Notes: generated from the sequence alone by a model not told the origin. A stretch of DNA of 64,000 bases from an uncultured Gemmatimonadales bacterium (GCA_963726955.1 CAVSEC010000006.1:350601-414600); one strand, 5' to 3'. Counted from the stretch's first letter, positions 3,503 through 53,962 are shown. A program made the numbers and translations.

Positions 3503-5527
3503 ATGCCGTCGACCCGTTCCATCGTCATCCACGGCCACTTCTACCAGCCGCCTCGCGAAGATCCCTGGCTCGACGAGGTGGAGGCCGAACCCTCGGCCGC
3601 GCCGGCGCACGACTGGAACGAGCGGATCGAGCAGGAGTGCTACCGCGCGGTCGCGGCGGCCCGGCTCCCGGGGCATGGGGGCCGAATCGCCCGGATCGTG
3701 AATCTGTACGAATGGGTGAGCTTCAACTTCGGGCCGACCCTGCTGGAGTGGCTGGAGCGCGCCGCGCCTGACACATACCAGGCAGTGCTCGGCGCCGATC
3801 GCGCGAGTGCCCAACGTCTCGGCCACGGCAACGCGGTGGCGATGCCGTATCACCACGCGATCCTGCCGCTCTCCTCACGACGGGAAAAGGTCACCGAGGT
3901 ACGCTGGGGCATCGCCGACTTCCGGCGTCGCTTCGGCCGCGAGCCACTCGGGATGTGGCTGCCCGAGACTGCGGTCGACGAGGAGACCCTCGACGTGCTC
4001 GCCCAGGAGGGGATCGGGTTCACGATCCTGGCGCCGCACCAGGTGGACCACGTGCCGGCCCGGGGGCTCCCCGGCCGGGTGCGCACCGCCGGTGGGCGCT
4101 CGATCGTGGTGTTCGTCTATGATGGCCCGATCAGCCACGATGTCGCGTTCGGTCCCCTGGTGCGGGACGCGACGAGCTGGTCCACCCGGCTCCTCGCCAC
4201 GCCGGCCGATGGACCTCCGCCCGCGCTGGTCTCCGTGGCGACCGACGGCGAGACCTACGGTCATCATCACCACTTCGGCGAGATGGCCCTGGCGATGACG
4301 ATCGAGCGGATCCGCGAGGCGCCCGGAGCGGTCATCGAGAACTTCGCCGCCTTCCTGGCGCGGCATGGCGCGGAGGAGGAGGTCCGCATCGTTTCACCCA
4401 GCGCCTGGAGCTGCACCCACGGGGTCGAGCGCTGGCGGAGCGATTGCGGGTGCCGCATGGCGCATGACCAGCCGACCAGTCAGGCGTGGCGCACGCCGCT
4501 CCGCGACGCGGTGAGCTGGCTCACGACGACCTGCCACGGCTGCTTCGATCGCGACGCCCCTGCCCTGCTCCGGGAGCCGGCGGAGGCGCTCGCCGGATAT
4601 GGCAGCGTGATCGGCGCCGGTGCGGCAGCTGTACAGCAGTACGTTCGCGCCGCCGCGCGACCCGATCTCACTCCCGAGGCGCTGATGCGTGCCGCGGAGC
4701 TTCTGGAGATGGAGCGCGGTGCGCTCCGCACCCTCACCAGCTGCGCCTGGTTCTTCGATGATATCGGCGGGCTCGAGCCGCTCCAGGTGCTGCGGTACGC
4801 AGCCTGGGTCATCGCGCTTGGGGGCAATGATGCGCACATGCTGGAGGAGGGCTTCACCCGCCGCCTCGCGCCGGCGGAAAGCAACGTCCCGGCCCTCGGC
4901 AGCGGCCGGGACATCTACCTCCTCCGTGCCAGGCCGCACCTGGTGCCGTCGGCGCGCATCGCCGCCGGCCTTGCCGCAGCACGGCAGCTGGCGCCCGCCG
5001 CGGCGGAGAGCTTGACGTGGCGGATCGACGGCGCGGACGACGCCCTCCTCCTGACCAACCGGCGTACCGGGCGGACCTACACTTTTTCCGTCAGCCTCGA
5101 GCGTACCGCCCTCGCCGTCCTGGCGACGGTGCGCTCCCCACTGCTCGATGCCCCAGTGGCGCTGCCGCTCGCGGAGCTGCCGGAGCGCCAGCGCGAGGCG
5201 ATCACGGGAGTGCTGCGCGGTGAGGCGCTGGCGCGGCTGCTTTCGGCCGCTGAGCGGGGGGCACTCGAGCGCGGCGACCCGCTGCGACCCCTCGTGCGTG
5301 CGGCACTGGTGCGCCGGGTAGCAGACCTGGGAGATGGGCACGACGTGGAGGGACGGGCCGACGTCACGGAGCTGCTGCTGTTCCTGGATCAGCTCGGGCA
5401 GGCCGCGCCCTTCGAGGCGCAGACGCTGTTCTACAGGATCTGGCGGGCGGGCAATCCGGCGGACCGGGGCATGGCGGAGCTGGCGGCACGGATGGGGTTC
5501 GCGACCGATGAGGGCGGCCCGGCCTGA
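3503..5527 (+). CDS. GH57-family glycoside hydrolase (alpha-amylase-like, long C-terminal extension)
   Basis: In-frame ATG at 3503 inside ORF 3122..5527. The N-terminus SIVIHGHFYQPPREDPW, together with FNFGPTLLEWL, MWLPETAV and ATDGETYGHHH, are GH57 catalytic-domain blocks. The upstream 127 codons overlap the permease and are Arg/Pro-rich noise. Confidence 0.8.
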   Translation: MPSTRSIVIHGHFYQPPREDPWLDEVEAEPSAAPAHDWNERIEQECYRAVAAARLPGHGGRIARIVNLYEWVSFNFGPTLLEWLERAAPDTYQAVLGADRASAQRLGHGNAVAMPYHHAILPLSSRREKVTEVRWGIADFRRRFGREPLGMWLPETAVDEETLDVLAQEGIGFTILAPHQVDHVPARGLPGRVRTAGGRSIVVFVYDGPISHDVAFGPLVRDATSWSTRLLATPADGPPPALVSVATDGETYGHHHHFGEMALAMTIERIREAPGAVIENFAAFLARHGAEEEVRIVSPSAWSCTHGVERWRSDCGCRMAHDQPTSQAWRTPLRDAVSWLTTTCHGCFDRDAPALLREPAEALAGYGSVIGAGAAAVQQYVRAAARPDLTPEALMRAAELLEMERGALRTLTSCAWFFDDIGGLEPLQVLRYAAWVIALGGNDAHMLEEGFTRRLAPAESNVPALGSGRDIYLLRARPHLVPSARIAAGLAAARQLAPAAAESLTWRIDGADDALLLTNRRTGRTYTFSVSLERTALAVLATVRSPLLDAPVALPLAELPERQREAITGVLRGEALARLLSAAERGALERGDPLRPLVRAALVRRVADLGDGHDVEGRADVTELLLFLDQLGQAAPFEAQTLFYRIWRAGNPADRGMAELAARMGFATDEGGPA

Positions 5528-5539
5528 GGCCGGCACCAG

Positions 5540-6301
5540 TCAGTGGCCGCGAAAGTTCCGCGAGGCAGTGATGAACGCCCGGAAGAGCTGCCGGGTGTGA
5601 GGATCGGTCATCTCGAACATCTCCGGATGCCACTGCACGCCGACCATGAAGTGATCGGCGTCCCGCTCGACCGCCTCCACCAGGCCATCCGGCGCCACCG
5701 CGGCCGACGCCAGCTCCGGGGAGAGCCGCTTGATTCCCTGGTGGTGCATGCTGTTCACCAGCATGGTCGGCTTCTCGATGATCGCCATCAGCCGGCTCCC
5801 CTGGGCCAGCGAGACCTCATGCGCGAGGTGATCGCGCCTGAATCCGGCGGTCGGGAAATAGTCGTGCTTGATCCCGTCAGGCTGCTGCGCCGCCAGATCC
5901 TGATAGAGCGACCCGCCCAGCGCCACGTTCATGACCTGGATGCCTCGGCAGAGGCCGAGGATCGGCTTCCGGTCCTCGATGGCCCAGCGGGTGAGCTGCA
6001 GCTCCACCCGATCCCGGGCGGCGTCCAGGGAGCCGAGTTTGGGGTGGCGCTCCTCCCCAAAGGTGGCAGGATCCATGTCGACGCCGCCGGGAATGAGGAG
6101 ACCGTCCAGGCGATCGTAGATTTCGCGCAAGGTGTCTTCATCGTGATCCAGCAGCGGAATCATCCAGGGCACCCCGCCCACGATCGTCGCGGCGAGAAAA
6201 TACCGCTGATTCATGACCCAGGACTCCGGGAGCCCGGCGGGGATCCCGTCGATGGCGTGGAGCGTCTGGGTGGTAACCCCGATCACAGGGCGGTTGGACA
6301 T
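5540..6301 (-). CDS. Peptidase C26 / class-I glutamine amidotransferase-like gamma-glutamyl hydrolase (PuuD-like)
   Basis: ORF 5540..6370 with internal ATG at 6301 (MSNRPVIGVT). It carries GLCRGIQVMNVALGG (nucleophile Cys) and VGVQWHPE (His-Glu), both typical of the C26 family. The reading frame is intact. Confidence 0.8.
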   Translation of the reverse strand: MSNRPVIGVTTQTLHAIDGIPAGLPESWVMNQRYFLAATIVGGVPWMIPLLDHDEDTLREIYDRLDGLLIPGGVDMDPATFGEERHPKLGSLDAARDRVELQLTRWAIEDRKPILGLCRGIQVMNVALGGSLYQDLAAQQPDGIKHDYFPTAGFRRDHLAHEVSLAQGSRLMAIIEKPTMLVNSMHHQGIKRLSPELASAAVAPDGLVEAVERDADHFMVGVQWHPEMFEMTDPHTRQLFRAFITASRNFRGH

Positions 6302-6462
6302 CGGTGTCGAGTTCCGGATTCCGGGTGTCGAGTGCGAAGCATCGGCCTTCCCGCATGGGCAGGAGAGCAATACTCATGCTACAAAGGTAGTCAGCCGGCA
6401 CCGCCGCCATCCAGAGGCTAACACCAACGGGGACACTGCTGTTCCCTCCAGGGCGGCGCTCC

Positions 6463-7569
6463 CTACACGATTCCTTCGGCGGTCTCCCCGATCAGCTGAT
6501 CGACCACGGCCTTCAGGTCGCCGGTCCGCTCGAAGGTCGCGATCTGGCGGTCGGCGCTCGTCCCCCCCTCGAGGATCGTGAAGGCGTACTCGACTTCCTT
6601 GCGGGTGCCCAGCTCGTCGAGCACGTCGTCGAGGAACCACTCGATCATCTCGCGGATCAGGTCGCGGGCGGGCAGCTCCTCGTTCTTTGCCGAAATCGAT
6701 CAGCTTGCCGTCGAGACCGTAGCGGACGGCCCGCCACTTGTTCTCCTCGATCAGCGCGGCGGGATAGACGCGGAACGTCAGGTTGTCGCGACGCAGCTTC
6801 CAGAGCTTGGCGATGATCGCCTGGAAGATCGCCGCGATGCAGACCGCCTCGTCGACCCGCGTGCAGACATCGCAGATGCGGAACTCGAGCGTCGGATAGC
6901 TCCAGTTCGGCCGGACGTCCCACCAGATCTTCGAGCCGTCCGGAATGCACTTGGTGTCCACCATGCGTGCCGACCAGCTGCTCGAACTCCGCCCAGGAGT
7001 GCAGCGAGCGCGGAATGCCGGTCCGCGGGAAAGTCGCGGAAGATGATGCTCCGGTAGGACTTCAGGCCGGTCTTCCGCCCCATCCAGAAGGGCGAGCTCG
7101 TGGAGAGCGAGAGCACGTGCGGCAGGAAGTAGCGGGAGACGTTCATCGCATCGATCAGGAATTCGCGATCCTCGATGCCGATGTGGACGTGCGTGCCGAA
7201 GATCAGCAGCTGCTGCGCGAGGTCCTGCAGGTCCTCCTTCACGCCGATGTAGCGCTCGAGCGGCGTGATCTCCTGCTCCATCCAGGACGAGAACGGATGG
7301 CTGCCGGCCGCGAGCACCGAGCCCCTGCTTGGCCGCGAGGTCCATCACCAGCCTGCGCAGCCGCACCAGCTCGCTCCGCACCTCGGCCGGGTGTGGCAGA
7401 CCTTGGTGCCGACCTCGACCATCGACTGGTGCAGTTCCGGCTTGACCTCGCCGAGGATCAGCGAGTCCTCCTTGAGGATCTCGGTGATGTAGGACCGCAG
7501 CTCGCGCGTCTCCGGGTCGATGATCTGGTACTCTTCCTCGATGCCGATCGTGAGGCTGGGCGGCTTCAT
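6463..7569 (-). pseudogene. GCS2-family carboxylate-amine ligase (YbdK-like); frame broken at least 5 times
   Basis: The N-terminus [24 protein letters not shown] starts at ATG 7569. Later blocks ([53 protein letters not shown]...GIV stop at 6463) lie in alternating frames. By manual tracing the shifts fall near 7385, 7320, 7035, 6965 and 6690. I saw no in-frame stops inside the conserved blocks. Confidence 0.8.
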
Positions 7570-7598
7570 GACAATCCTCAGGCAGAAGGCTTGGCTGG

Positions 7599-7639
7599 GC
7601 GATTGCGAGCGATTGGCGATTGGGCGATCGGGCGATCGG
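7599..7639. repeat. Tandem array of five GCGATYGG octamers in the intergenic spacer between the Gsp-like ligase and the GCS2 gene
   Basis: Direct reading of the plus strand gives gcgattgc-ga-gcgattg-gcgattgg-gcgatcgg-gcgatcgg. It lies within the 101-nt spacer 7570..7670. Confidence 0.8.
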
Positions 7640-7670
7640 CCGGTGAGCCGACGGCCCGAGGGCTCGCTGC

Positions 7671-9039
7671 TCAGGCCCGCTGCTCCACGACGAAGCATGG
7701 CACCGTGCTCCCGCCGCCCGCCGTGACGTTGAGCAGCGCGGCGGTGGAGAGCCGAGTCAGGCAGCCGTCCACTGCGGTGCCGTCGAGCACGAACGGCGCC
7801 GTGTCGAGCATCCGGTCGACCAGGTGGAGCGTGCCGTCGACCACGCTCGGGTACGGCTCCGTCGGCAATCGCGATCCGCTCCTGCACGATGTACGGCTCG
7901 GCGAGCGCCCGTGCCAGCGCCGCGCCCCACGTCGCGTCGTCGACCGTCCCAGCCGAGCACGATGCCGGCGCCGCCGTAGTCGTCGTTCGGCTTGAGCACG
8001 AGCTGATCGCGGTGCGTCGCCGATGAACGGCAGCAGGTCGATCCGGCTGCCGTCCAGCATCGTGTCCGGCGCTCCTCGACCACGCGCGTCCACGGAATGA
8101 ACTCGCGCGATGGCCGCCTGCTCGTCCGCGCGTGAAGAGACTCGCGTTGCGCTCGTCGCACAGCACGGCGAGGCTCGCCTTCTTGTGCAGCATCTTGCAG
8201 CGGAAGGGATTCACCATGCAGACCGCGCCGTCGCGCACCGCGCGCACGATCGGATGATCGACGCCGCTCCCGCTCGACCAGCTCGTGGATCAGCACCCGC
8301 TTGTAGATCAGGTCGATCGGCCGCGCCGCCGCCGTACAGCTTGCCGTTCCGGTACTCCATCGTCGCGCGGATCGACGATCACCGTCTCCAGGCCCAGCGA
8401 CTCGAAGTAGTCCTGGAAGAGCACGAACTCGCTCCGGGTCGGCACGTCGTCCCAGTCGACGATCGCGATCCGCGGCCGCTGCGCACCGGCCGGAGAACTC
8501 CTGCCACGCGTCGAGCAGCAGCGTGGAGCACGCCGTGCCGCGCCGGGAGCGGGCGCACGTCGTACCGCATCGCGGAACGCCCGCATCACCGGCAGGCCGC
8601 AGAAGACCTCGGCCAGCGCGTCGTTGTACGCCGCGCCCGCCGGGCGTCTCGGCGTTGTACTCGGTCAGCGCCATCGCGCCGGTCGGATCGACAGGAAGCA
8701 GTCGAGCCGCGCCGTGCGGGCTCGGGCTCCGAAAGCCCGGATCGGCGAGCACCAGCGGCTCCTCCCACTCCGCCAGGCGGAACTGCGCCCGCAGCGCGGC
8801 GTCGGCCAGCGCCGCCTCGTGCGCCCGGGCGAACGCGCCCATCAGGCGGCTGGATCCGGCCGCTCAGCGTCCGCACTGCGCCGGGCGTGAGGAACCGCGG
8901 CCGCAGCACGGTGCAGAGCGGCCGGTCGCCGAAGACCAGGCTGCCGCCGGCGCAGCTGGTCGTCGAGCATCGCATGCGACGCCTGGGCGACGTCTCCGTC
9001 GCCGAGGAGGTCGTGGTAGATCGCGATGGCGTCGGTCAT
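7671..9039 (-). pseudogene. Glutathionylspermidine-synthetase-like (pre-ATP-grasp) amidoligase; frame broken about 10 times
   Basis: Starts MTDAIAIYHDLLGDG (ATG 9039). Conserved blocks are scattered over all three minus frames: [116 protein letters not shown]. The family assignment comes from motif resemblance only. Confidence 0.6.
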
Positions 9040-10055
9040 GCGGTTCCGAGTTCAGTTCCGATCGTCCCGGGTCGACGTGCATGCCTCGGAATCTCGCACG
9101 CTCGGAATCTGTCCAGCGCCACTGCTTCGTGCTCGAGGCAAACATGCCCGCCCATCCCGATTCCGTCACCTGCCGCCGGCCGCCCTTGGCGAGCCGGATC
9201 ACCATGTCGGCCATGTGCGTGACCACCCACTCGAAGTAGTCCGGCGTCAGCGAGTTGATGTCCATGTCCGGCGCCGGGTTCATGAAGTCGATCGCGTACG
9301 GCATGCCGTCGCGGATCGCCAACTCGACCGAGTTCATGTCGTAGCCCAGCGCCCGCACGATCGTGCGGCAGTCGCGCACCACCCGCTCCCGGAGCGCCGG
9401 CGCGAGGTAGTCCTGGTCGACGATGTAGCGGCGCTGCCTCGGGATCGTACTGCATCACCAGAATCTCCTCCTGGCCGAGGCACATGCAGCGGACGAACTG
9501 CTCCCACTCGATGAACTCCTGCACGATCATCGTGAGCAGGCCCGACTGTCGTAGTGCGTGATCAGCTCCTCCAGCGTGCGGCAGACGTAGACGTCCCTCC
9601 AGCCGCCGCCGTGCGCGTCCTTGAGGATGCACGGCAGGCCGATGCTCCGCGACGAGTCCCTCCCAGTCGAGCGGCTGCAGGTTGCGCAGACTCTCCGTCG
9701 GCACGATGCCCGGGACGTACTCCTTGTTCGGCAGCACCACCGTCTTCGGGCTGGCGACGCCGAGCTTGGTGACCAGCGCGGCGCCGAAGAACTTGTCGTC
9801 GGCCGTCCACATGAACGGGTTGTTGACGACCGCGACGCCCTCGAGCACGGCGTGCTTGAGGTAGGTGCGGTAGTACGGCACCTCGTGCGAGATGCGGTCG
9901 ACGATCACGTCGTACGGACAGGGCTCGTCCATCGCCACGCCGCCGAGCGTCACGAACTCCGCCACGACGCCGGCGTCGCGACGATTCACTTCCTCGATGA
10001 ACGCCGGCGGAAAGGACCACTCGCGCCCGACCAGAAGCCCCACGCGCTTTGTCAT
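9036..10055 (-). pseudogene. RimK/GshB-type ATP-grasp ligase; about 3 frame breaks
   Basis: ATG at 10055 (MTKRVGLLVGREWSFPP) is preceded by a GGGAGCAGG SD-like sequence. Blocks IGLPCILKDAHGGGWRDVYVC, MIVQEFIEWEQFVRCMCLG and AIDFMNPAPDMD lie in different frames, with shifts near 9640, 9545 and 9437. The 3' end is uncertain. The N-terminal frame stops at 9036 in an ATGA overlap with the next gene. Confidence 0.65.
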
Positions 10056-10095
10056 ACCTGCTCCCGAAGTGTGATGATGCGAGCGAGAGGCTGCT

Positions 10096-10118
10096 CGATC
10101 CCCCAATCGCCCAATCGC
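10096..10118. repeat. Two to three GCGATTGG octamers, inverted relative to the 7599..7639 array
   Basis: The plus strand reads cgatccc-ccaatcgc-ccaatcgc, so the minus strand reads gcgattgg-gcgattgg-gggatcg. It lies in the 77-nt spacer between the esterase stop (10133) and the ATP-grasp start (10055). Confidence 0.75.
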
Positions 10119-10132
10119 CCGGCGCCCCCCGG

Positions 10133-10854
10133 CTAGTCGTGCCCCCGCAGGTAGATCCGCACCATCTGCTCCCAGTACGGCCAGTCGTGTGCATTCCCGT
10201 CCCACACCCGGAGCGCGTTGCCGATGCCCCGGCTCCACAGCAGCGCCGAGAACTCGGCATTGTTCGGATACATCGGATCGTCGCGACCGATCGCGAGGAT
10301 CGATGTCCTGACGGCGAAACGCGTCGAGGCGGGCCGGGTCGTGCTCGTGCTGCATGAAGTCCATCGGATTCACGGCGTACACGTTGTCGTCCGAGTAGCC
10401 GCCGGTCATCCGCGTGATATCGTAGAGGCCGCTCATGCCGAGGATCCGTCCCACCGACCCCGGGTACTTGAGCCCGAAGGTGACCGCGTGGCTGGCGCCG
10501 AGACTCGCGCCGGTCGCGATCACGAAGGGGTTGGGGTTCAGCCAGGCGGAGTATGGCAGCACCTCGTCCTGGACGTATCGGTAGTACTGGATGTGGGTCC
10601 ACGCCCGATGCCCCGCGCCCACCGCCTCATTCCCCCAGTTCTCCTCGTGCGGCTGGTCCAGGCAGAAGAGCTGGATCCAGCCGTTGTCGAGGTGGTCCTG
10701 CAGCACCAGGTGCATCCGGCGGTCGGGCCACTCGCTAGTGGGTCCCCATGCTGGTGGGAAAGACCAGGACCCGGGCGCCGGCGTGCCCGATGACCTGCAT
10801 GGCCATCGTGCGGCCCAGCGGAGGGCTGTACCAGGAGACGGTTTCGTGGTGCAT
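10133..10854 (-). pseudogene. Esterase-family alpha/beta hydrolase; 2 frame breaks
   Basis: ATG at 10854 (MHHETVSWYSPPLGRTMAMQVIGHAGARVLVFPTSMG). The protein continues in other frames: EWPDRRMHLVLQDHLDNGWIQLFCLD, GASLGASHAVTFGLKYP (GxSxG) and ILAIGRDDPMYPNNAEF...YLRGHD, stopping at 10133. Shifts fall near 10740 and 10290. Confidence 0.65.
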
Positions 10855-11018
10855 GAACGGGGCTGAGAACGGGGACGGACGACCACCGACGAAGGGAGGG
10901 AATCTATCCCGGAACGGGGATTCCTCCATGCCCCCCGGCGCGGCTGGCCGCCAGGGGGTGGATGCTGCGGGGGGGCGGCACTCCCGAGTGGCGAGGGAGG
11001 CCGTGGAGAATCGGTCGG

Positions 11019-12482
11019 CTATCGCAGTCCCCGGATACGGCGCGAACTCCACTCGATCAGCAGCGCGGAGAGCAGGACGGCGAAGATCCAGGCCGGGATG
11101 GCGTCGCGTTCCGCCTGCGCATCACTGAAGGCAGCGGTTGAGGGCCCCAACCGGTCGAGCAGGCCGGCCACTGGCACGGGATCGGTTCCTCCCGAGCCGA
11201 CGGGCACCCGGCCCACGAGCGCCACCTGCGCGACCAATCCGGCCAGCCATGCACGATACCGTTCCGGGGCGGATTCCCCGCCGCCCATCGGCCAGCGCCA
11301 GCTGTCGACGTAGCCGATCTCCACCACTCGCCCCATCCCGATCCGACGCGCCCCGACGGCGATCAGCGACCCGCGAGTTTCGAGCGCCACAGCGTCGTGG
11401 TGGAGCGGGACAATGGGGACCAGACCCAGCGCGGCGCGTGGCAACGAATCGGGGACGGCGCCCGACTGCACCGGAATCTCGGTCCCGCTCCCCCCCGCGG
11501 CAAAGGGGTGGAGCGCCGGCGTCGCGGCCGCGTCGGACCAGAGCACCAGACCGCCGCCGTCGCGAAGGTATCGGGCGATCGCGGCTCCGTGACGTGCGGC
11601 GGTGGAGTCGATCGCCAGCACCGCACTGTAGCGCGCAGTGTCGATCGCGATCCGCACCGGCGGCTCCGTCACGGGCGCTGCAACTGGTGGTGCCGGGGCG
11701 CCGAACGCCCGGGGCATTCCCGGCGCCCCGCCGTCGACCTGCGGGGCGATGCGATTCGGGGCCTGTGATTGCCGCGCGGCCGGCTCCTCCGCCGGGCTGG
11801 CCTGTGCCGGTCGCGGCGCGACGATTCCCTGATACACATCACTTCCCGGCGCGACGACGAACCGGGCATCCACGATCCACCCCCGTTCGGTCAGCGCGGC
11901 TGCGACAAAGCGTGATTCCCAACTGGCCCGGCCGAGGAGCAACAGGCGGCGAAAGGCGAGCGAGTCCCGTGGGAGGTCGTGCGCAACGACCACCCCTACC
12001 ACGGCGGAGGTGCCTTCCTCCAGTCGGGTGAGCTGGAAACGCTGCGGCGCATTCGGCGCGACCACACTGTCCCGGAGTCCGAGCGTGTCCCGCAGCAGCA
12101 CCGTTGCTCCCGCGGGGGCCGCGACCGAGACCTCGACGCCTCCGGCCGGGTCGACTGACCGTGCGACGGTCGCGGCCATCGGCGCCATGGCCGGCCCGGA
12201 CCAGCGGACCACCGTCCCGGCCCGGCGCAGGGCGGCGAGCCAGTCGCGCTCCACCACTGCGGGCGGCGCGTCGAACCGCACGGTGACCTCGCGCGGCGGG
12301 GCCACCGTGCTCCAGCGTTCCAGCCGCGCGCGGAGGGTCATGGATTCGGCGGTCTCCGCGCCGTGCCGGTGCACCGCCCCCAGTGACAGGAGCCAGGCCC
12401 ACGCCAGCAGGGCTACCGCCAGCGCCCGCAGCACCGACTCGGCGCCACCCCGGAGGAGGTCAGCGGCTGAGCGCATACACAA
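11019..12482 (-). CDS. Membrane protein, last gene of the MoxR/BatA-type operon (N- and C-terminal TM helices)
   Basis: Intact 487-aa ORF with TM helices at LRALAVALLAWAWLLSLGAV and IPAWIFAVLLSALLIEW. It overlaps the upstream gene by 23 nt. An alternative GTG start at 12434 is possible. I recognised no catalytic motif. Confidence 0.5.
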   Translation of the reverse strand: MCMRSAADLLRGGAESVLRALAVALLAWAWLLSLGAVHRHGAETAESMTLRARLERWSTVAPPREVTVRFDAPPAVVERDWLAALRRAGTVVRWSGPAMAPMAATVARSVDPAGGVEVSVAAPAGATVLLRDTLGLRDSVVAPNAPQRFQLTRLEEGTSAVVGVVVAHDLPRDSLAFRRLLLLGRASWESRFVAAALTERGWIVDARFVVAPGSDVYQGIVAPRPAQASPAEEPAARQSQAPNRIAPQVDGGAPGMPRAFGAPAPPVAAPVTEPPVRIAIDTARYSAVLAIDSTAARHGAAIARYLRDGGGLVLWSDAAATPALHPFAAGGSGTEIPVQSGAVPDSLPRAALGLVPIVPLHHDAVALETRGSLIAVGARRIGMGRVVEIGYVDSWRWPMGGGESAPERYRAWLAGLVAQVALVGRVPVGSGGTDPVPVAGLLDRLGPSTAAFSDAQAERDAIPAWIFAVLLSALLIEWSSRRIRGLR

Positions 12483-13071
12483 TCAGGTTGACGGAAAACT
12501 TGGTGACATCTTCTGTCATGAACCGTTTGCGCTCGGGACTGAAGTCCCACTCCGAGCTGTAGTCCTTGCTGCTGTAGAGCAGTCCGATCCGCCCGTTCAC
12601 CAGCACGGCATCGAGATAGGGGTGGAGCAGGTCGTCGCCCCAGCCATTCAGTTCGTGGTGGGTATTCGGCGGGCCGTCGGGAAAGTTGAAGAAGCAGCGA
12701 TACAGCTCATGGTCCTTCGGCAGCCGGGTCATCTTGCCGAAGGCGCGCGCGATCTCCTCATGCGCCGTCAGGTGAAAGGCGCCGTTGATATCGTGGTTAT
12801 GGTCGTCGATGACCAGGAATCCGCCCCGCTCGACGTACTGCTTGAGATGGGCCCGCTCCCGATCGGTAAACCGCACCGGAAGGTGGCCCGTCAGCCAGAG
12901 AAAGGGATACCCGAACACCAGCTCCGACGCGAGCGGGACGTTGACCCCGCTCGGCTCGACTTCGATGCTGGTGTAGCGAGCCAGCGTGTCGATCAGGTTG
13001 GCCGGCAGCGTCGGCGCGCTCTCCCAGTCGCCCGACTCGTACTGTGCCGTTGCAAAGGTGAAGCGGCTCAC
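12460..13071 (-). CDS. DUF4159-domain protein
   Basis: ORF 12460..13092. It carries DUF4159-type blocks: FTFATAQYESGDW, YPFLWLTGH, LKQYVERGGFLVIDDHNHD, LLYSSKDYSSEW. I preferred the GTG at 13071 because it makes a GTGA overlap with the upstream stop, matching the coupling style of this operon. Confidence 0.75.
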   Translation of the reverse strand: MSRFTFATAQYESGDWESAPTLPANLIDTLARYTSIEVEPSGVNVPLASELVFGYPFLWLTGHLPVRFTDRERAHLKQYVERGGFLVIDDHNHDINGAFHLTAHEEIARAFGKMTRLPKDHELYRCFFNFPDGPPNTHHELNGWGDDLLHPYLDAVLVNGRIGLLYSSKDYSSEWDFSPERKRFMTEDVTKFSVNLIVYALSR

Positions 13072-15012
13072 GGGGCGTTCCCTCCGGCCCACTCGGCCGG
13101 CCCCGACAACCTGACAGGCGCCGAGGAGAGTTGCAGGCGCGCGGGGGCAAGGGCAACCGCGATGCCGGTCCCCGCACGCAACCGGTCGAGTCCCTGCGTG
13201 AGGATCCGGGCCAGCTCCGGGCGCCGCAGCAGCAGCGACGCCCGCAGGAAGACGAGCGAGTCCGTCGCTCCCTGCGGGTCCGACCGATAGAGGCGAATGA
13301 ACTGCTGCAGCCGCTCCGCCAGCTGCCGATCGAGCGCGGTGAGCGGCGGTCGCCCCGCGGCGGCGGCCGGCTCCCCTCGGTCGGTGCCGGTGAGCCGGGC
13401 CCGCGCCACGTCGACTGGCGGCGGCCGGAGCACCCCGCGCATGTGGTACCGGCGCGCGGTGCGGATTTCATCCAGGATCGCCAGCGCCTTGCGCATAGGC
13501 GGGCGGGCGGAGTCCACCTCGGCCATCGCGAGCCGCAGTCTCGCCTCCAGCATCGCCTCGGCCGCCTCACGGAGCCGGCGACTCTCGTCGGTCGGGGCGG
13601 AACCGCCCATGCCGTCGTCCTCGAGCAGCGCGATGACCGCGATTACCCGCTCCCGGATCTGCTGCTGGGTGTTGCTGTAGCTCATCGCGCGATCGGTGAT
13701 GACGGCCCGGGTCAATCGGCCACGGACGTTCCACAGGGTGTCGGTCCGCAGGTTGAGCAGCCGCTGGCTGATCCACATCGAGTCGATCGGAATTGGCGGC
13801 TCGGCGGCGGCGGCGCTGCTGTCCATCGGCGCCGCGATCCGGATGGTTCTCGTCTCCGAGACGCCGCGCCCGGGGCCGGTCAGGTCGTTCGCATCCAGGG
13901 CCACCGCGCGCAGGTTCACCACGCTTCCCGGCGTCAGCTTGAGGGTATCGAGCCGGAGAGACAATCGGAAGGTCGCCTCGCGGGCACCGCCTAACGGAGC
14001 CCTGCGGCTCTGCCGGGCGACGGTCTCGAACTGCTCGCCGGCGCCCGTGGTGATCAGGAGTTCCCAGTACCCCGCCGCCAGGCCGAGGTCATCCGTCGCA
14101 TGCGCCTCCAGCCGGAGCGGGGAGAGCGGCAACGATTGATAGGTCGTATCATGCGCCGGGGCGCGGAGCACCACCTCGGGGATGGCAGTCGGGCCGCGGT
14201 TCGAGACTCACCAGGCGGCGGAAGGTCCGATCGTGCAGCACCAGCACCGTCGGTTCCAGGGGAAGCCGGAGGGTCAGGCGCCAGCCACCGTCACGCATGG
14301 CCGCCGTGAACGAATCCGAGGCCAGCACGCCGGTGACGCCGTCCGGAGATCCATCGCCCTGAAGGGTGACATCCGTCCCCGCCAGTGCGGCGACGACCTC
14401 GGGCTCTCGCAGCAGCAGGGTCGGCAGCCGGCTGTAGCTCGGCGGCCTGACCTCGGCCGCGAGGGGTATCAGTCGATTGGGAACGACGACGAGCGGCCGG
14501 TCGGCCAAACCGCCCGTTCCACCGACTTCACCAGCGCGGTGAGCCGATCGAGCGACGAGCCACAGCGCGGCGCCAACGGTGATGACACCGGTCAGCGCGT
14601 GGCGGAGTTCCCGCCGCGCCGTCCGGCGGACGAGTCCTTCGATGTCCGCGCACTCCGCCGCTGCCAGCAGCTCACCGGGGAGGGGCGGCCCCGCGACGTC
14701 GGCGGCGACTGCGGTCACCAGCGCATAGTCGAGCGACGGATCGTGTTCCTCGATCCAGAGTGCGGTACTGAGTGACGACCGGGTCTTCCGGCCGCGCCAC
14801 AGCACCCAACCGCCCACGCCGAGCGCAGCGGCCAACCCGGTCACGGTGAACGCCTGCCTCGCCCCCGAGGACAGGGGGGCGGCCAGACCGATCAGAAGCG
14901 CCATGACCCGCACGGCGCTGGCCACGCATAGACCCCAGAGGAGCGCGGTGCTGATGACGACGAGCGACAGGAGTCGTCGAGCGCGGGAGACGCGCGTGAC
15001 GGGCCGGTTCAT
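13068..15012 (-). pseudogene. Large membrane-anchored protein of the Bat-type operon (DUF4175-like), one frame break near 14160
   Basis: ORFs 14149..15123 (ATG at 15012, MNRPVTRVSRARRLLSLVVISTALLWGL, multiple TM helices) and 13068..14174 overlap by 26 nt. They read as a continuous sequence (..VSLEPRPD / PEVVLRAPAHDT..) if one indel is allowed. The DUF4175 assignment is tentative. Confidence 0.45.
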
Positions 15013-16327
15013 GGCGTGCGCCCGAGTGATGCGGCGGTCTCGGAGTTGCCGTCCGCGACGGGCCGGCGGCGGCGGACCCAGAGCTCCAGCAGGGCCAGCA
15101 GCAGGGCGGCGGCCAGGAGCCACGGGATCAGCGGCGTCTCCGGGGCTTCTGGTGGGCGGAGGTCGCCGCGCGACGCGAGTCGACCGCTACCCGCAAGAAT
15201 GGCTCTGTCCCCGGCTCCGAGCAGCTGCACCGGTCCTGCACCAGCGCAGGGACCGCTGAGGGCGCGGAAGAGTCTGACCACATCGGGCCGGACGGCGAAG
15301 TCGCCGCGACCGGAGATGCCGATCGTCACGGTCCTGATGCAGCCGCTGCCCAGCGAACGTTCCAGCGCCGCCGGGGCACCGTCGACCCAGCGGGCGACCA
15401 CCCGTGCACCCAGCAGAGACGCAGAGTCGGGTCCCCAGCGCCTCTCGAAGGGGAAGACCACCGCCTGATCTCCCGCCACCACCGCGCCAACAGTGTCAGG
15501 CGAAAGGATCGCACTCCATCCCGGAGGCGCCCCGTCGGCCGGCCACGCCACCCAGGTGCCGCCTCCCTCGACCCATCGCGCGTCGACCGGAGTGTGACTG
15601 CTCCGCTCGAGGCGCACCCGGGCATCGCCGGAGCGGGAGCGCGCCAGAAGCGACGTGACGCCCAGCGGATCGTCGCGGCCGGCATCGAACGCCAACGCCG
15701 GTGACACTGCGGAATCGTCACGAGGCCTGACCGCGATCAGACGCACCCGCCCGGGCCAGAGCGCGCGAATCGTCGCGGTGGCGCCGTCCCACTCTTCGGT
15801 GAGCAGGGGAGCGACGAGCACCAGCTCGACACTGTCCACCTCGAGGCTGAGCTCACTGCCGGTGCGCCGGGCGGCCAGCAGCGCCGCAGAGAGCGAACCG
15901 GTCCCTGCCCCGGCAGTAAGTGAATCGACGCCTGGGTGCGACAGCATAGTCACCGTCGAGTCAAACGTCAGCATCCGGTCACCGGGGCGAGCGAACGCGC
16001 GCAGCGAGTCCGTCACCTCCGCGATGGAGGCCACGCTCGCCGAGCGGTCTGCCACGACGACACGGGCCATCGCCCGGCGGCTCGACAGCAGCACCGGCCG
16101 CGCAAAGGCGGCGCCGATCAGGAGCAGGGCCAGCACACGAAGGGAAAGGAGCAGCAGCTCTCCGGCCGGCGCGTCAGACTGGTGACGATGACGGACGCGG
16201 GCGGGATAAACCGGGCCGTGGGGAGTGGGACCAACGGCGGGGGCCGAGTCACCAGGAAATGCAGCGCGACCACCACGCCGGCGGCGGCGAATGCAGCGAC
16301 GAGGAAGAGCGGGGCGAGGAACATCAT
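15009..16327 (-). pseudogene. BatA-N-terminal-domain (aerotolerance regulator N-terminal) membrane protein, one frame break near 16160
   Basis: ATG at 16327 overlaps the DUF58 stop (ATGA). The N-terminus [40 protein letters not shown] is the BatA_N pattern. After TSLTRR the frame shifts by one base, and ELLLLSLRVLALLLIGAAFARP continues in ORF 15009..16136. Confidence 0.6.
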
Positions 16328-35244: not shown

Positions 35245-37196
35245 ATGCCCAACCCCATCCGGTTCGTGTTCGGAGTCCACCTGCATCAGCCGGTGGGCAA
35301 CTTCGATTCGGTCTTCGAGCAGCACGTGGCCGAGGTCTACCGGCCGTTCCTCCAAAAGGTGGACGAGCGGGACTTCCTGCCGATCGTGCTGCACCTCTCG
35401 GGGCCGCTGCTCGAATGGCTGGAACGCCACGACCGCCGCTACCTCGATCTCCTCGGCCGGCTCGTCGCGGACGGCAAGGTCGAGCTGCTCTGCGCGGGCA
35501 TGTACGAGCCGGTCCTCGCGGCGCTGCCGCGCCGGGACCGGGTGGAGCAGATCGGGTGGCTACGGGACGCCATCGCGCACCGCTTCGGCGTCGAACGCGA
35601 TCGGCCTCTGGCTCACCGAGCGCGTCTGGGAACCGGAGCTCGCCGCCGACCTGGTCGACGCCGGCGTCCGCTACGCGCTCGTCGACGACCGCCACTTCCT
35701 GGTCAGCGGGTTCCGGCGCGACGATCTGCACGTCCCCTTCGTGACCGAGAGCGACGGCCGCCAGCTGGCCCTCTTCCCGATCGACGAACGACTGCGCTAC
35801 CTGATCCCCTTCCGTCCGCCGGCGGAGACGGCCACCTATCTGCGCGAGCTGCGCGGCCCGGGGCAAGCCGCTGGCGGTGCTGGCCGACGACGGCGAGAAG
35901 TTCGGCGGCTGGCCCGGCACCGAATGATTGGGTCTACGAGAAGGGCTGGCTGGACCAGTTCATCACCACGATGTCGGCGCTGGTCGACGGCGGCGAGGTG
36001 CAGCTGACCACGCTCTCACGAGGCGCTCGACTCGCGTCCCGTCGGGCGGCCTCGCCTACCTGCCGACCGCGTCGTACCGCGAGATGGAGGGGTGGTCGCT
36101 CCCGCCGGAGCCGGCGCGGCATCTGCATCGCGCTCGAACAGGAGCTGGGAGAGGAGCGCGCTCGCGGGGCGCGGATGGCGCGCTGCATCCGCGGCGCCCA
36201 CTGGCGCAACTTCCTGGTGAAGTACGCCGAGGCGAACCGCATGCACAAGAAGATGGTGGCGCTCTCCGCCTCTGCCGCGACGCGGGCGACCCGCCCGAGG
36301 CGCGCCGCGCCATCGGCCGGGCCCAGTGCAACGACGCCTACTGGCATGGCGTCTTCGGCGGACTCTATCTGCCCCACCTGCGCGACCACATCTGGTACGA
36401 GCTCGCCGGCGCCGAGGCGATCCTCCGCGAGGGTCAGCCGGTGGCGTGGGAGTCTCGCGACATCGACTGCGACGGCTACGAGGAGCTGTGGATCCACGAC
36501 GAGACCTTCTCCGCCATCATCAGCCCGGCGCGTGGCGGGGTGATCGAGGAGTACACCGTCTTCGAACACCGGATCAACTACGCCAACACGCTCACCCGTC
36601 GTCGCGAGGCCTATCATGAGCCGAGCCCGGACCATGCGCAGAGGGACGAGTGACCACGACGAGGCGGGCGCCCCCACCATTCACGGCCTCGAAGAGCAGA
36701 TGCGGCAGAGCAGCTGCCGCCGATCGACGCCGAGCCGCGGGTGCTGATCCGGGAGCGCGCGCTCGGCTCCGAGGTGGGTGAGGCGATGTACGCCCGGGGT
36801 GACTACGATGCCCCGTGGAGCGTGAGTGAGGCTCGACTGGAGATGGATGTCGTCGGGGAACCCGAGGGCGTCGCCGTGTCGTTCCGGGCGGTCGAGGCGG
36901 GGGTCACGGTCTTCGAGAAGTGCTACCACTTCGTGTCCGGCGGCCGGCTGGTGGTCGACTATCGCTGGCTCCCCGCGGCCTTTGGGCCGACCGACATCTT
37001 TGCGCCGGAGTTGAGCTACGCGGGGCCGATGGAGATCACCTGCAGCCCCGGCGCACCAGTCTGGAGTCACGACATCGTGACGGTGGCCAAGTCGGAGAAG
37101 GAGCTGGAGACCACCATTCAGGGCCGATCCTCGACGCCCCGGTGGCCTGCGCAGCTGGGTGAGTCGCGGATCGAGATCAGTACTTCCGGGCGATGA
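35245..37196 (+). pseudogene. GH57-family enzyme (4-alpha-glucanotransferase/amylase-like with DUF1925/DUF1926-type C-terminal region); at least 6 frame breaks
   Basis: The N-terminus MPNPIRFVFGVHLHQPVGNF...LSGPLLEWL is intact to about 35600. Later blocks GLWLTERVWEPELAADLVDAGVRYALVDD, LAVLADDGEKFGGWPGT, AYLPTASYREMEGWSLP, RAQCNDAYWHGVFGGLYLPHLR and the C-terminal part ending ..RIEISTSGR (stop 37196) lie in alternating frames. Confidence 0.75.
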
Positions 37197-37204
37197 GGTC
37201 AGCT

Positions 37205-37224
37205 CCGGTGCCCCTGGGCACCGG
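37205..37224. terminator. GC-rich hairpin between convergent genes (possible bidirectional terminator)
   Basis: CCGGTGCC-CCTG-GGCACCGG is a perfect 8-bp stem. It lies between the stops at 37196 (+) and 37251 (-). No U-run follows. Confidence 0.45.
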
Positions 37225-37250
37225 AACCGGTACCAAGTCCCCCCGCACTT

Positions 37251-39222
37251 CTAGGGAAGGTACTTCCCGACTTTCGGCTCCACCTTCAGCACCCAGAGCC
37301 CGCTGTTGATGTCCGGCACGTACATCACCCCGTTCTTCACAACCACACCCCAGGCGAACGGCACATGGGGCTTCTTCCCCATGGAATCGGCGGTGAAGAT
37401 CCAGCTGATCTCCCGCCCCTGACGCAGCAGGTCGCCCTTGAGCTCGCCGGAGATGTCGAGGACCCGGGCGCCGCCCTGGTAGTTGCCGAGGTACAGCGTG
37501 TCCCCCTCCACCCAGACGTTGTGCACGCCGCCGTCGGTCGGCTCATACCACGCCACTTCCTTCGGATGCTCGATGTCCGAGACATCGATCACATGCAGCC
37601 GGCCCCAGGTCAGGTTGTTGCCGTCCTTGAGCCCCTTCGACTCCCGCGAGGCGTACACCTCGTCCCCGGCAAAGACGTACTTGCCGGCCCGCCAGGCGGT
37701 GTGGGTGCCGCGGTAACCGAGTCCGTAGAGCTGATCGACCCGGGCGTAGGTCTCGGAGAGGTTGTACTTGTACTGCGACGACCAGCACCGGTTTCTCGGG
37801 CGTGCCCCCCTTCATGCCGTTGCCGACATCGAGGATGATCACGCCGTCGTTCCAGTAGGCCAGATAGGCGAGCCCGTCGACGACCATGATGTCGTGCAGG
37901 TAGCGCCCGGCTTCGGTCTGCTCGGTCTGCCAGCGGCCCACCTCGGCCGGATGGTACGGGTCGCGGATGTCGATCACCCGCATCGAGCCGGTGGCGTCAT
38001 CGGTGAGGAAGACGTGGCCCTGATAGACGTAACTCGAATGCACCCCGCCGGTGACGGTCTCGTTGTAGTCGGCGATGACCTTCGGATGGCAGGGATCGCT
38101 GGCGTCGAAGACCTTGATCCCGTTCTTCCGGTTGGAGGCGCCCTCACGGGAGAAGACGCCGAACTTGCCGTCCTCCGTCGTCATGATGTCGTTGAGCAGC
38201 CGCGCGTCCGCCATCATGGAGTCGACGATGTGTGGCGTGGTGGGATCCTGGATGTCGATCACGTAGGCCCGGTCCGCGATGGTGGTCATGTAGGCGCACT
38301 AGCCCCGACGGATGCACCCACACCTCGGCGGCCAGCTCCTTGATCGGCAACCGGCCCAGCACCTCCATGCCGCGCGTCACCCGCCGGAGCGTCACGCTGA
38401 CGACCGCATCCGCCGCTTTGCCTTCCCGCCTCGGCGGTGACGGTGTACCGCCCCGGCTTCTCCGCCACAAAGGCGCCGTCGTCATCGATCTGGGCGACGC
38501 CATCACCGCCCGCCACCGACCAGCGGGCGGCGAATCCGGTCACCTTCTTGCCCGGTCGGGGCCCGTCCCACGGCGGTGAAGCGGACCACATCTCCGGTCC
38601 GGATCACCGGTGCACCAGGCTCGATCTCGAGCCGAGTCAGGGAACTCGGCACCACCTGGAGCGCAAGCGAGCTCTTCGCCGCACCCGCGGCACCCGAGAT
38701 GGTGACCTTGCCGGGCGCGAGCGCACGCAGTCGTCCATCCGCCGTGATCGAGGCGATCCGCGGATTGCTGGAGCTGAATCGAATCGCGTCGTCACGGGGA
38801 TCGTTGTGGACGCTGAAGGCGGCGCCGGAGATCGTGCGCCGGCTGCCGACGAGGAGGTTCCCGTCGACCGGGGTGAGCGTCACCCGGAACGCCGCCTCCG
38901 GCTGCACCTCGACTTTCGCGTTGCCGTAGACCGCCTTGGTGTCCTTCACGGACACCACCGCCGTGACCAGCACCGTCCCGCGGTACCCCGCCGTCAGCAG
39001 GCCGGTCGAGTCGATCTCCCCCTGGCCGCCGCCGTCGAACCAGCGCACCTGGACGCCGGGGACCGGTTGACCGGAGGCGTCGAGGGCGCGAGCGGAGAAT
39101 TGAAGCGTCTGCCCCACCTGCAGCGTGGCGGTGGCCGGAGTGACGTCCACCGTGGCAATCGGTGACGGCGCCTGAGCCGGCAAAGGCGCCTGCAGGAGTC
39201 CGAGCAAGAGAGCTGGCAGCAT
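37251..39222 (-). pseudogene. Secreted Big_2-domain plus LVIVD-repeat beta-propeller protein; 4 frame breaks
   Basis: ATG at 39222 (MLPALLLGLLQAPLPAQA signal peptide). Big_2-like repeats (VTPATATLQVGQTLQFSARALDASGQPV). LVIVD-type repeats (AYVIDIQDPTTPHIV, MRVIDIRDPYHPAEV, LHVIDVSDIEHPKEV). Segments change frame near 38595, 38440, 38295 and 37790. Confidence 0.7.
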
Positions 39223-39344
39223 GGAGATCGAGGGAAAGAGGGAGTGGGGATGAGGAATCATTCCAGGCAACGTGGAAATCTACTCCCGGGTTTCGTCGGC
39301 GCGAGGGCAGCCCCCATCCCCCGCCGCCGCGTGGCCGTTCCGGG

Positions 39345-39386
39345 TCCCCGTTCCCTCTGCCCCTTTCTCTCTTATCTTTCCGCCCC
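39345..39386 (+). other. Polypyrimidine leader upstream of aguB; a mirror-image pyrimidine-rich leader serves the divergent gene at 39223..39257 (minus strand)
   Basis: The plus strand reads tccccgttccctctgcccctttctctcttatctttccgcccc followed by ATG. The minus-strand leader of the LVIVD gene reads tcctcatccccactccctctttccctcgatctcc followed by ATG. Confidence 0.6.
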
Positions 39387-40296
39387 ATGTCGACCCCCGA
39401 TCCCACGCAGGTGATCCTCGGCCTCATCCAGATGCGGATGACCGCGGACCCGGAGGAGAACTTCTCCCGCGCGATCGCACGCATTCGTGATGCGGCGCAG
39501 CGCGGCGCGCAGGTGATCTGCCTGCCCGAGCTGTTCCGCAGCCCGTACTTCTGCCAGACGGAGAACCACGATTTCTTCTCGCTCGCCGAGCCGATGCCAG
39601 GCCCGAGTACCGAGCGACTCGGCAGGCTCGCGGGCGAACTGGGCGTCGTGATCATCGCCTCGCTTTTCGAGAAGCGGGCCGAGGGGCTCTATCACAATAC
39701 GACCGCCGTCCTCGATGCCGACGGCAGCTACCTGGGCAAGTACCGGAAGATGCACATTCCGGACGACCCCAACTATTACGAAAAGTTCTACTTCACGCCG
39801 GGCGATCTCGGCTACCGCTCGTGGGACACCAGGTTTGCCAAGGCGGGCGTGCTCATCTGCTGGGACCAGTGGTACCCGGAGGCGGCGCGGCTCACCGCGC
39901 TCACCGGCGCACAGCTCCTCTTCTATCCCACCGCGATCGGCTGGCTGGTGCCGGAAAAGGCCGAGTACGGTCCGGCGCAGCAGGCGTCGTGGGAAACGAT
40001 TCAGCGGAGCCATGCGATCGCCAACGGCGTCTTTGTCGCCGCGGTGAATCGGGTCGGGGTCGAGAGCGGGCCCGAATCAGGGGATCGAATTCTGGGGCGG
40101 AAGCTTCGTCTGCGCCCCCAACGGCGAGATCGTCGCCCGGGCCGGCACCGGCGAGGAGACACTGATCGTCCCCATCGACACCCGAAAGGTGGACTTCGCG
40201 CGGACGCACTGGCCCTTCCTCCGGGACCGGCGCGTCGACAGCTACGGCGATCTGACCAGGCGCTACATCGACGAGCCCCTCTCTCCCGGCCCCTCG
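39387..40296 (+). pseudogene. aguB: N-carbamoylputrescine amidase (CN-hydrolase), one frame break near 40085; no stop before aguA
   Basis: MSTPDPTQVILGLIQMRM, CLPELF, YRKMHIPDDPNYYEKFYFTPGD and ICWDQWYPEAAR (catalytic Cys) are all present. After GPESG, a 1-nt offset at a G4 run restores IEFWGGSFVCAPNGEIV...WPFLRDRRVDSYGDL. Confidence 0.85.
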
Positions 40297-41359: not shown

Positions 41360-41468
41360 TGCGGTCCCTCGATCCGTCGAGCCGGGCGCAGCATGAATCC
41401 ATGGCGCCCGGGATCGGCCGTCAGTCTTTCCCAGCACTGCACCAGTCAACCTCCATCCACGAGTCGCC

Positions 41469-51271: not shown

Positions 51272-53417
<2,146 letters not shown>

Positions 53418-53472
53418 CGGGGGAAGCCCTCAGGCTGAAAGGTTGCGCACGGGGGCGCGGACTGGCGGCGGG

Positions 53473-53540: not shown

Positions 53541-53566
53541 TTCCCATTCCGGTCCGGCAGCCGGGA

Positions 53567-53953: not shown

Positions 53954-53962
53954 ACCGGGGAC

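Follow-up and report, generated by a model that had tools for sequence, protein, structure and literature searches.

A conserved operon of amide-bond-forming ligases and hydrolases with an esterase-ATP-grasp core, recovered from an error-rich Gemmatimonadales assembly

A 64-kb stretch of DNA from an uncultured Gemmatimonadales bacterium, here referred to as the window, contains a run of interrupted minus-strand coding sequence in which three ligases of different kinds lie beside two hydrolases. The locus raises two questions: whether the broken reading frames represent a functional gene cluster and, if so, what kind of compound such a set of enzymes may act upon. In a six-frame reading of positions 5400-11100 the protein-like sequence jumps among the three minus-strand frames, and joining the pieces yielded five proteins, encoded by the genes est, agA, cpag, gcs2 and c26 (Table 1). 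A previous reading made from the sequence alone had placed five consecutive minus-strand genes at 10854..5540, and their order, strand and outer coordinates were correct. Its gene and family calls also stood. Only c26 is an uninterrupted open reading frame (ORF) in the window, and the mention of frame correction in that reading suggests that the interruptions had been noticed. The G+C content is about 70% for the window, 65-69% for the cluster and 70-73% for the flanks of the cluster.

Table 1. Genes of the cluster in the window (all coordinates counted from the first nucleotide).
Gene	Coordinates	Strand	Product and state of the reading frame
est	10133..10854	-	239-aa PF00756 'putative esterase' alpha/beta-hydrolase; one-base insertions at about 10734 and 10301
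agA	9110..10055	-	ATP-grasp ligase (about 311 aa); three frameshifts (near 9650, 9548 and 9444); 3' end approximate
cpag	7671..9039	-	450-aa predicted circularly permuted ATP-grasp (likely CP_ATPgrasp_2, PF14403); 18 frameshifting indels
gcs2	6463..7569	-	368-aa YbdK-type carboxylate-amine ligase (PF04107); 5 frameshifting indels
c26	5540..6301	-	253-aa C26-family (class-I glutamine-amidotransferase-like) thiol amidase; intact

Conservation of the operon and its core

The cluster is a real operon that is conserved over several bacterial phyla, with genes that are co-oriented, closely spaced and colinear over many genomes. To analyse its distribution, we used an alignment of agA to scan a single genome of each species, which gave at least 561 confirmed loci, and fetched the best 80 of these for synteny counts. 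As queries in tblastn searches against the 80 loci we used the five proteins of an intact reference locus (L002) from a close relative, the Gemmatimonadales metagenome-assembled genome (MAG) GCA_044229445.1, which consist of 239, 311, 450, 368 and 254 amino acids. All five genes were present in 49 of the 80 loci, belonging to the Gemmatimonadota, the Acidobacteriota and the Rubricoccaceae, and not a single one of the 80 was non-colinear. Since the same genes are found in the same order in 49 loci, the five-gene set is beyond chance. The sequence-only reading would have been contradicted by a lack of synteny in other genomes, and the opposite was observed: dozens of genomes, belonging to three or more phyla, show synteny of the five genes.

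The individual genes differ in their distribution. Among Gemmatimonadota loci whose contig reaches far enough, est was present in 58 of 59, cpag in all 61, gcs2 in all 56 and c26 in 49 of 51. The four genes were likewise found in both Acidobacteriota MAGs (2/2 for each gene) and in the single Rubricoccaceae MAG (1/1 for each). The Chloroflexota loci contained est (10/11) and cpag (10/10), gcs2 in only 2 of 10 and c26 in none of 10, and a MAG of the planctomycete Fimbriiglobus contained only the esterase-agA-cpag trio. This trio is the invariant core of the system. As most Chloroflexota and Planctomycetota loci lack the genes for GCS2 and C26, this gamma-glutamyl pair is a lineage-restricted module and not central to the system.

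Other modules have been added to the operon in some lineages. An all-against-all comparison of ORFs identified as recurrent neighbours a second, larger PF00756 esterase (est2; 270-300 amino acids, E 1e-31) in about 30 Gemmatimonadota and two Anaerolineales loci, and extra ATP-grasps of about 405-425 amino acids, singly or as a tandem pair, in seven Gemmatimonadaceae and two Ardenticatenaceae loci. These extra proteins match the families ATP-grasp, ATP-grasp_4, Dala_Dala_lig_C and LAL_C2 (with PF02222 and PF13535 among the matches) and are of the L-amino-acid-ligase (BacD/YwfE, TabS and RizA) or Ddl type. Among themselves, and in comparison with agA, they share only 21-32% identity. The extended operons (L017, 1289-5252; L028, L037, L049, L053 and L081; L054 and L069, about 10300-11600; L068 and L073, about 7000-7900) contain up to five ligases and three hydrolases. 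Neither est2 nor an ATP-grasp of the L-amino-acid-ligase type was found anywhere in the 64-kb window. A tblastn search for agA on plasmids gave no match.

Frameshifts and an apparent gene overlap in the window copy

To count the frameshifts, we aligned the nucleotide sequence of the window to that of L002, as the high-scoring segment pairs (HSPs) from tblastn were misleading and ran through out-of-frame stretches. The two sequences are 82% identical, and about 4.4 kb of the window contained 29 frameshifting indels, distributed as 2 in est, 3 in agA together with a disrupted or lost stop codon, 18 in cpag, 5 in gcs2 and none in c26. As many as 25 of the 29 indels were +1 insertions. Once the indels had been removed, no true internal stop codon was left in any of the genes; the lone apparent stop in est coincides with an insertion, and deletion of one base restored the sequence ..THSEWP... 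The corrected proteins are 80-90% identical to their L002 orthologues, and the ratio of nonsynonymous to synonymous substitutions (dN/dS) relative to L002 was 0.12-0.26 in the interrupted genes and 0.10 in the intact c26. Residues that are invariant in the families were retained at 277 of 279 positions (128/129 in agA, 99/100 in cpag and 50/50 in the esterase). The adjacent gene for a glycoside hydrolase of family 57 (GH57) aligned with its orthologues in a single unbroken HSP with zero indels, and a 487-codon ORF upstream was also clean.

The absence of stop codons after correction, the low dN/dS ratios, the retention of invariant residues, the bias towards +1 insertions and the clean GH57 gene all indicate that the indels are artefactual: they are patchy consensus or assembly errors and not a sign of gene decay. 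That the window copy is instead a decaying pseudogene cluster with biological frameshifts we regard as very improbable. The concentration of 29 indels in about 4.4 kb while the flanking c26, GH57 and 487-codon frames are clean could be taken as a sign of decay, but corrected genes with no true nonsense codons, nearly all invariant residues and dN/dS ratios as low as that of the intact c26 do not fit such a history, nor does an insertion to deletion ratio of 25:4, which is opposite to the deletion bias that is usual in bacterial pseudogenes. Twenty-nine independent real frameshifts, biased towards insertions and unaccompanied by nonsense or missense decay, are not biologically credible. Similar disturbances occur outside the cluster, which also speaks against decay. 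A plot of G+C content at third codon positions by phase revealed rapid switching of the coding phase, every 100-400 bp, at about 14200-16300, 35500-41400 and 53400-54100, and LVIVD repeats are present in each of two ORFs that overlap in different frames at 37251-38289. These patches suggest that indel errors are scattered across the assembly rather than specific to the cluster. A related 1-Mb long-read contig with the same gene arrangement (L001) also carries two single-base insertions of this kind in cpag and gcs2. The practical lesson is that the locus lies in a dense patch of indels and is not decayed, and that intact orthologues such as L002 and L004 are better suited for experiments.

One junction had been read as an ATGA overlap. 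The four letters are present at 9039..9036, but they do not mark a real gene junction. The TGA terminates a mechanical ORF of 616 codons (9036..10886) in which esterase and agA frames are joined as a chimera, whereas the homologous C-terminus of agA (..GWAGMFASS, about 9126) is located in another frame with no stop before 8867. In the orthologous loci the spacing between agA and cpag varies, the genes abutting in some loci and being separated by about 5 to 136 nucleotides in others (69 in L002). Because the overlap ends a chimeric frame, because agA is read in a different frame and because the orthologous spacing is not fixed, we conclude that it is an artefact and not a case of translational coupling. 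In both L001 and L002, est and agA form an abutting pair.

Protein families and relation to known systems

After frame correction, searches with hidden Markov models upheld all five family assignments (PF00756, a weak match to rimK_fam, probably PF14403, PF04107 with NF010039, and PF07722), and none of the corrected proteins was placed in a characterised family with an unrelated function. GCS2 matched PF04107 with 187 bits (cut-off 21, E 5e-55) and NF010039 with 521 bits (cut-off 371, residues 4-368), and its match to YbdK (1r8g) had an E of 1.6e-43. The corrected protein contains, as LTIGIEEEY, the GhExE signature of the Mg/ATP site that has been defined for GCS2-type ligases (PMC2588565). 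Its scores were below the cut-offs of the equivalogs for glutamate-cysteine ligase (NF010043, 346 bits against 409; NF010042, 246 against 427; NF010044, 231 against 437; NF010045, 174 against 395; TIGR02048, 66 against 249). C26, which is 87% identical to its L002 orthologue, matched PF07722 with 212.6 bits (cut-off 20.5, E 8e-63) and contains the catalytic cysteine in GLCRG and the histidine and glutamate in WHPE. Its matches included PuuD (6vtv, E 5e-35), Lin1909 and the 'probable glutamine amidotransferase' 7d4r, while its score for the PuuD equivalog NF008471 was 132.6 bits against a cut-off of 266.

The esterase exceeded the PF00756 cut-off of 22 bits both in the window (27.8 bits) and in L002 (32.7 bits). 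A Ser-Asp-His triad is represented by the GASxG motif, Asp192 and His222, none of which varies among 20 orthologues. The nearest solved relatives are the 'esterase family protein' 6vh9 and feruloyl esterases (E 6e-9). The protein did not show a specific relationship to S-formylglutathione hydrolase, the best chain (7yvt) giving an E of only 0.097.

For cpag, the PF14403 score was 34.0 bits for the window reconstruction and 27.7 bits for the intact L002 protein, on either side of the gathering cut-off of 32, and most of the close homologues have a precomputed PF14403 assignment. cpag likely belongs to CP_ATPgrasp_2, as a divergent branch. The only significant match by sequence in the Protein Data Bank (PDB) was to the CP_ATPgrasp_1 structure 3n6x (E 1.7e-8), with YgiC and YjfC at E values of 0.08 and 0.4, and no match at E <= 0.01 was obtained to the Pfam families of GSP_synth and eukaryotic glutathione synthetase. 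An AlphaFold2 model (predicted local distance difference test, pLDDT, 82) was closest in Foldseek searches to eukaryotic-type glutathione and homoglutathione synthetases (hGS, plant GS/hGSH-S), followed by 3n6x, GspS, YgiC/YjfC and TryS, all at E values from 1e-14 to 1e-8. The model thus predicts the circularly permuted ATP-grasp topology that is common to glutathione synthetase and GspS.

The remaining core protein, agA, had no match in Pfam, neither as the window reconstruction nor as the orthologue. It matched rimK_fam (TIGR00768) with 39 bits (E 4e-10), far below the cut-off of 143 bits for membership, and did not match PF08443; at the sequence level there were also weak matches to biotin carboxylases and D-Ala-D-Ala ligase (Ddl). 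The AlphaFold2 model (pLDDT 80) is predicted to have a classical three-domain ATP-grasp fold, with ArgX/LysX, Ddl, RimK, PsnB and MdnC as the top PDB matches in Foldseek (template modelling (TM) scores 0.6-0.7, 12-18% identity; probability 1.0 for ArgX, Ddl and RimK). Like RimK, LysX/ArgX and Ddl, agA combines this fold with a Lys/Gly-rich loop, ILKDAHGGGW, and K145, G149-G151 and a DFMN motif are invariant in the alignment; it differs from them in the low identity, and there is no partner gene of the S6 or LysW type nearby. More than 8000 homologues of agA are present in the databases, the top 120 of which are 73-87% identical, and an exhaustive HMMER search gave 317 clusters (50% identity) at E <= 1e-30. 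Identities are 66-76% between Gemmatimonadota, Chloroflexota, Planctomycetota, Acidobacteriota and Rubricoccaceae, and 129 of about 311 columns are invariant in an alignment of 22 sequences. The median identities to L002 across phyla, about 70% for agA and 72-74% for GCS2, are unusually high. For agA, conservation at this level points to one of two causes, extreme constraint or a horizontal spread in recent times.

The kind of neighbourhood to which the cluster belongs has been anticipated in the literature. Iyer, Abhiman, Burroughs and Aravind (Mol Biosyst 2009) reportedly described neighbourhoods in which a permuted ATP-grasp is accompanied by a GCS2-like ligase, an alpha/beta-hydrolase and amidohydrolases, and the same type of neighbourhood, with a GCS2-like ligase, an alpha/beta-hydrolase and amidohydrolases, is mentioned in the Pfam note on PF14403. 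In our search of the literature, no experimental characterisation was found of PF14403/CP_ATPgrasp_2 or of combinations of such a ligase with an ATP-grasp and C26. A prediction from 2008 is that GCS2-like ligases beside amidotransferase-like thiol peptidases, with no ORF for a Pup-like protein, produce peptide metabolites similar to glutathione (PMC2588565). The present cluster agrees with the neighbourhoods predicted in 2008 and reportedly described in 2009 in the permuted ATP-grasp, the GCS2-type ligase, the alpha/beta-hydrolase, the thiol peptidase and the lack of a tag ORF. It differs in that the amidase is of class I (C26), that the most conserved member is a second ATP-grasp, agA, which is covered by no model, and that esterase-agA-cpag is invariant with GCS2 and C26 being optional.

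There are also partial parallels to characterised pathways. In glutathione biosynthesis, as proposed for the cluster, a ligase with a glutamine synthetase (GS) fold makes a gamma-glutamyl amide that a permuted ATP-grasp extends at its C-terminus, whereas cpag falls outside the Pfam families for glutathione synthetase, GCS2 is under the cut-offs of the Glu-Cys equivalogs, and a third ligase and two hydrolases are additional. The Puu/Pau (PuuA/PuuD, PauA/PauD) and EgtA/EgtC systems resemble the cluster in that a ligase acting on the gamma-carboxylate of glutamate has as its partner an amidotransferase-like hydrolase, by which the glutamyl group is taken off again later. They differ from it in that the Puu/Pau ligase is a type III glutamine synthetase instead of a GCS2-type enzyme, and in the redox and aminotransferase partners of Puu and the sulfoxide-synthase and methyltransferase partners of Egt, which the cluster lacks. 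The sequence-only interpretation in terms of ligases and hydrolases is reasonable but generic. What is added here is the distinction between the esterase-agA-cpag core and optional modules, the breadth of the distribution, the recognition of agA as a protein with no curated family model, and the correction of the frameshifts and of the ATGA overlap.

Proposed function and alternatives

We lean, with modest confidence, towards the reading that the operon serves the ATP-dependent assembly of a small peptide-like metabolite, independently of ribosomes and nonribosomal peptide synthetases (NRPS), and that it also encodes the hydrolases that mature or recycle the product. By analogy with related enzymes, GCS2 would phosphorylate a carboxylate, for which the family precedent is the gamma-carboxylate of glutamate, and join it to an amine, and cpag and agA would each add a further amide bond via acyl-phosphate intermediates. 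The Cys-His-Glu amidase C26 would remove a gamma-glutamyl unit, either in turnover or as the removal of a transient handle in the manner of EgtC and PuuD, and the Ser-Asp-His esterase may hydrolyse an ester or amide in the product or a by-product. The step catalysed by GCS2 is probably a gamma-glutamyl one, which C26 could reverse, and the metabolite is possibly gamma-glutamyl. Each of the proteins belongs to a named fold or family and has kept its catalytic signatures. The partners of the L-amino-acid-ligase type in the extended operons use free amino acids, which argues for small-molecule chemistry; because of these partners, and because no ORF for a carrier or precursor was found, a small-molecule product is favoured over a protein tag. 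The sequence-only reading had suggested a gamma-glutamyl peptide or gamma-glutamyl-polyamine conjugate, perhaps a thiol. Its general part, that ligases and hydrolases act on a small peptide-like compound, remains the best-supported interpretation, while nothing identifies a gamma-glutamyl-polyamine or a thiol.

Several observations weigh against this reading. The sequence alone names neither substrate nor product, and no conserved transporter or regulator that could give a clue to the role was found beside the cluster among the fetched loci. Conservation as high as that of agA and GCS2 is more typical of proteins with macromolecular partners or of recent horizontal spread, and some of the folds nearest to the agA model belong to enzymes with protein or peptide substrates (ArgX/LysX, RimK, PsnB). 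Two loci (L070 and L074) contain agA without the other cluster genes. Finally, an ordered scheme with three ligases cannot be universal, since the majority of Chloroflexota loci have neither GCS2 nor C26.

An unlikely alternative that takes the folds and the conservation of agA at face value is that agA and/or cpag modify a protein or peptide, attaching amino acids to a side chain or the C-terminus much as RimK or LysX/ArgX do; the target would in that case be encoded elsewhere, with the esterase and C26 acting as erasers, a corollary that we find unlikely to the same degree. The top structural matches of agA to ArgX/LysX, RimK and the graspetide macrocyclases PsnB and MdnC, its extreme conservation across phyla and its ability to stand without the other genes are consistent with such an activity. 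The similarity in fold is generic, however, with Ddl ranking equally at TM scores and identities no different from the rest, and the use of free amino acids by the L-amino-acid-ligase-type partners points away from a protein substrate. Graspetide and other ATP-grasp systems for ribosomally synthesised and post-translationally modified peptides (RiPPs) have an adjacent gene for the precursor peptide, whereas in the 80 loci the only candidates for a conserved small precursor or carrier ORF in or near the cluster were spurious high-GC or antisense clusters.

Two more specific pathways seem improbable to us. If GCS2 acted as PuuA and C26 as PuuD, the operon could serve the catabolism or salvage of amines or polyamines by gamma-glutamylation, as in the Puu/Pau pathways, which would suit the carboxylate-amine ligase family of the former and the similarity of the latter to PuuD and to the amidotransferase-like protein 7d4r. 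Yet the neighbourhood contains no conserved oxidase, dehydrogenase, aminotransferase or transporter, C26 reaches only half of the PuuD equivalog cut-off (133 against 266 bits), the two further ligases would have no role in such a pathway, and the core trio exists without GCS2 and C26. A glutathione-like low-molecular-weight thiol, with GCS2 as gamma-Glu-Cys ligase, cpag in the role of glutathione synthetase and the esterase serving as thioesterase, has about as little in its favour overall. The PF00756 family includes S-formylglutathione hydrolases, the top folds for cpag are eukaryotic-type glutathione and homoglutathione synthetases, and gamma-Glu-Cys can be a product of GCS2-family enzymes (YbdK, cited in PMC2588565). 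Against this, cpag matches none of the Pfam models for glutathione synthetase, the esterase scores better with feruloyl esterases than with S-formylglutathione hydrolase (E 0.1), GCS2 is below the glutamate-cysteine ligase equivalog cut-offs and is absent from most Chloroflexota loci, and the Gemmatimonadetes are already predicted to make thiols of the bacillithiol type (PMC6282198). Neither the PDB neighbours of the esterase nor the thiol literature provided specific support for the thiol hypothesis.

Within the preferred reading of small-molecule assembly, the trio and its lineage-specific modules could represent a modular, NRPS-independent assembly line for an intracellular metabolite such as a new cofactor, compatible solute or redox buffer, a broader view that we advance tentatively. 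On the same tentative view, the system would extend over soil and sediment Gemmatimonadota, Chloroflexota, Acidobacteriota, Planctomycetota and Rhodothermota, and agA would found an ATP-grasp family for which there is no curated model. Identification of the product would assign a function to several large families of "hypothetical" proteins, agA alone having more than 8000 homologues and occurring in at least 561 species-level genomes, and could reveal a widespread metabolite of poorly studied soil phyla.

The spacers between the genes have features of their own. In many Gemmatimonadales loci among L001-L036, the intercistronic spacers consist of tandem arrays of 7-8-mers in inverted pairs, such as (GTTCCGAG)n...(CTCGGAAC)n or (GCCGTTAG)n...(CTAACGGC)n, which fold as very stable hairpins (z about -8 in L007 and L013) and the units of which differ between spacers. 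We take these arrays to resemble the short tandemly repeated repetitive (STRR) arrays of cyanobacteria or repetitive extragenic palindromic (REP) hairpins. The est-agA spacer of the window contains, at 10098-10120, (GGGCGATT)x3, and the reverse complement of this GGGCGATT array is located 2.4 kb away, at 7596-7640 in the cpag-gcs2 spacer (24 nucleotides, 92% complementary). These two are the only such arrays within the 64 kb.

A comparison of the gcs2-c26 spacers of L001, L002, L004 and L007 revealed a block, CCTTTGTAGCACGAGTATTGCT, that is conserved in several relatives. The window shares a segment of this block, GTATTGCT (about 6365-6390). In addition, CGGAAC(T/C)C units are located immediately 5' of the start codons of c26 and cpag. 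The block and the units may constitute an internal promoter or translation signal. Small, unrelated genes that by eye are antitoxin-like lie between gcs2 and c26 in some Longimicrobium/Longimicrobiaceae loci (L020, about 6638-7204; L022, about 11642-12520; L044, 7406-7843; all on the minus strand), and the operon therefore tolerates insertions at this junction. The genes in enlarged spacers (antitoxin-like genes, lipoproteins) were lineage-specific and unrelated, with the exception of est2 in Anaerolineales. A consensus scan for promoters and terminators gave nothing above the expectation from shuffled sequences, and Rfam searches (5000-12000 at E <= 1, and the whole window at the gathering score) identified no riboswitch. 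A match to psaA RNA at 6464-6647 on the plus strand, antisense to the 3' end of gcs2, was dismissed as a weak chance similarity (24 bits, gathering score 50, E 0.014).

The surroundings of the cluster are also partly conserved. In L002, as in the window, the five genes are followed by genes for GH57, FtsX, a second GH57 and glycogen synthase. The gene that adjoins the cluster in the window codes for a GH57/DUF3536 glycoside hydrolase (3509-5527, plus strand), and it is a neighbour in 23 of the loci among L001-L053. It is located downstream in convergent orientation in the Gemmatimonadales, and upstream on the same strand, before the pair of L-amino-acid-ligase-type genes, in the Gemmatimonadaceae. 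The adjacency could be due to conservation of synteny in this region or to a weak connection in function with alpha-glucan metabolism.

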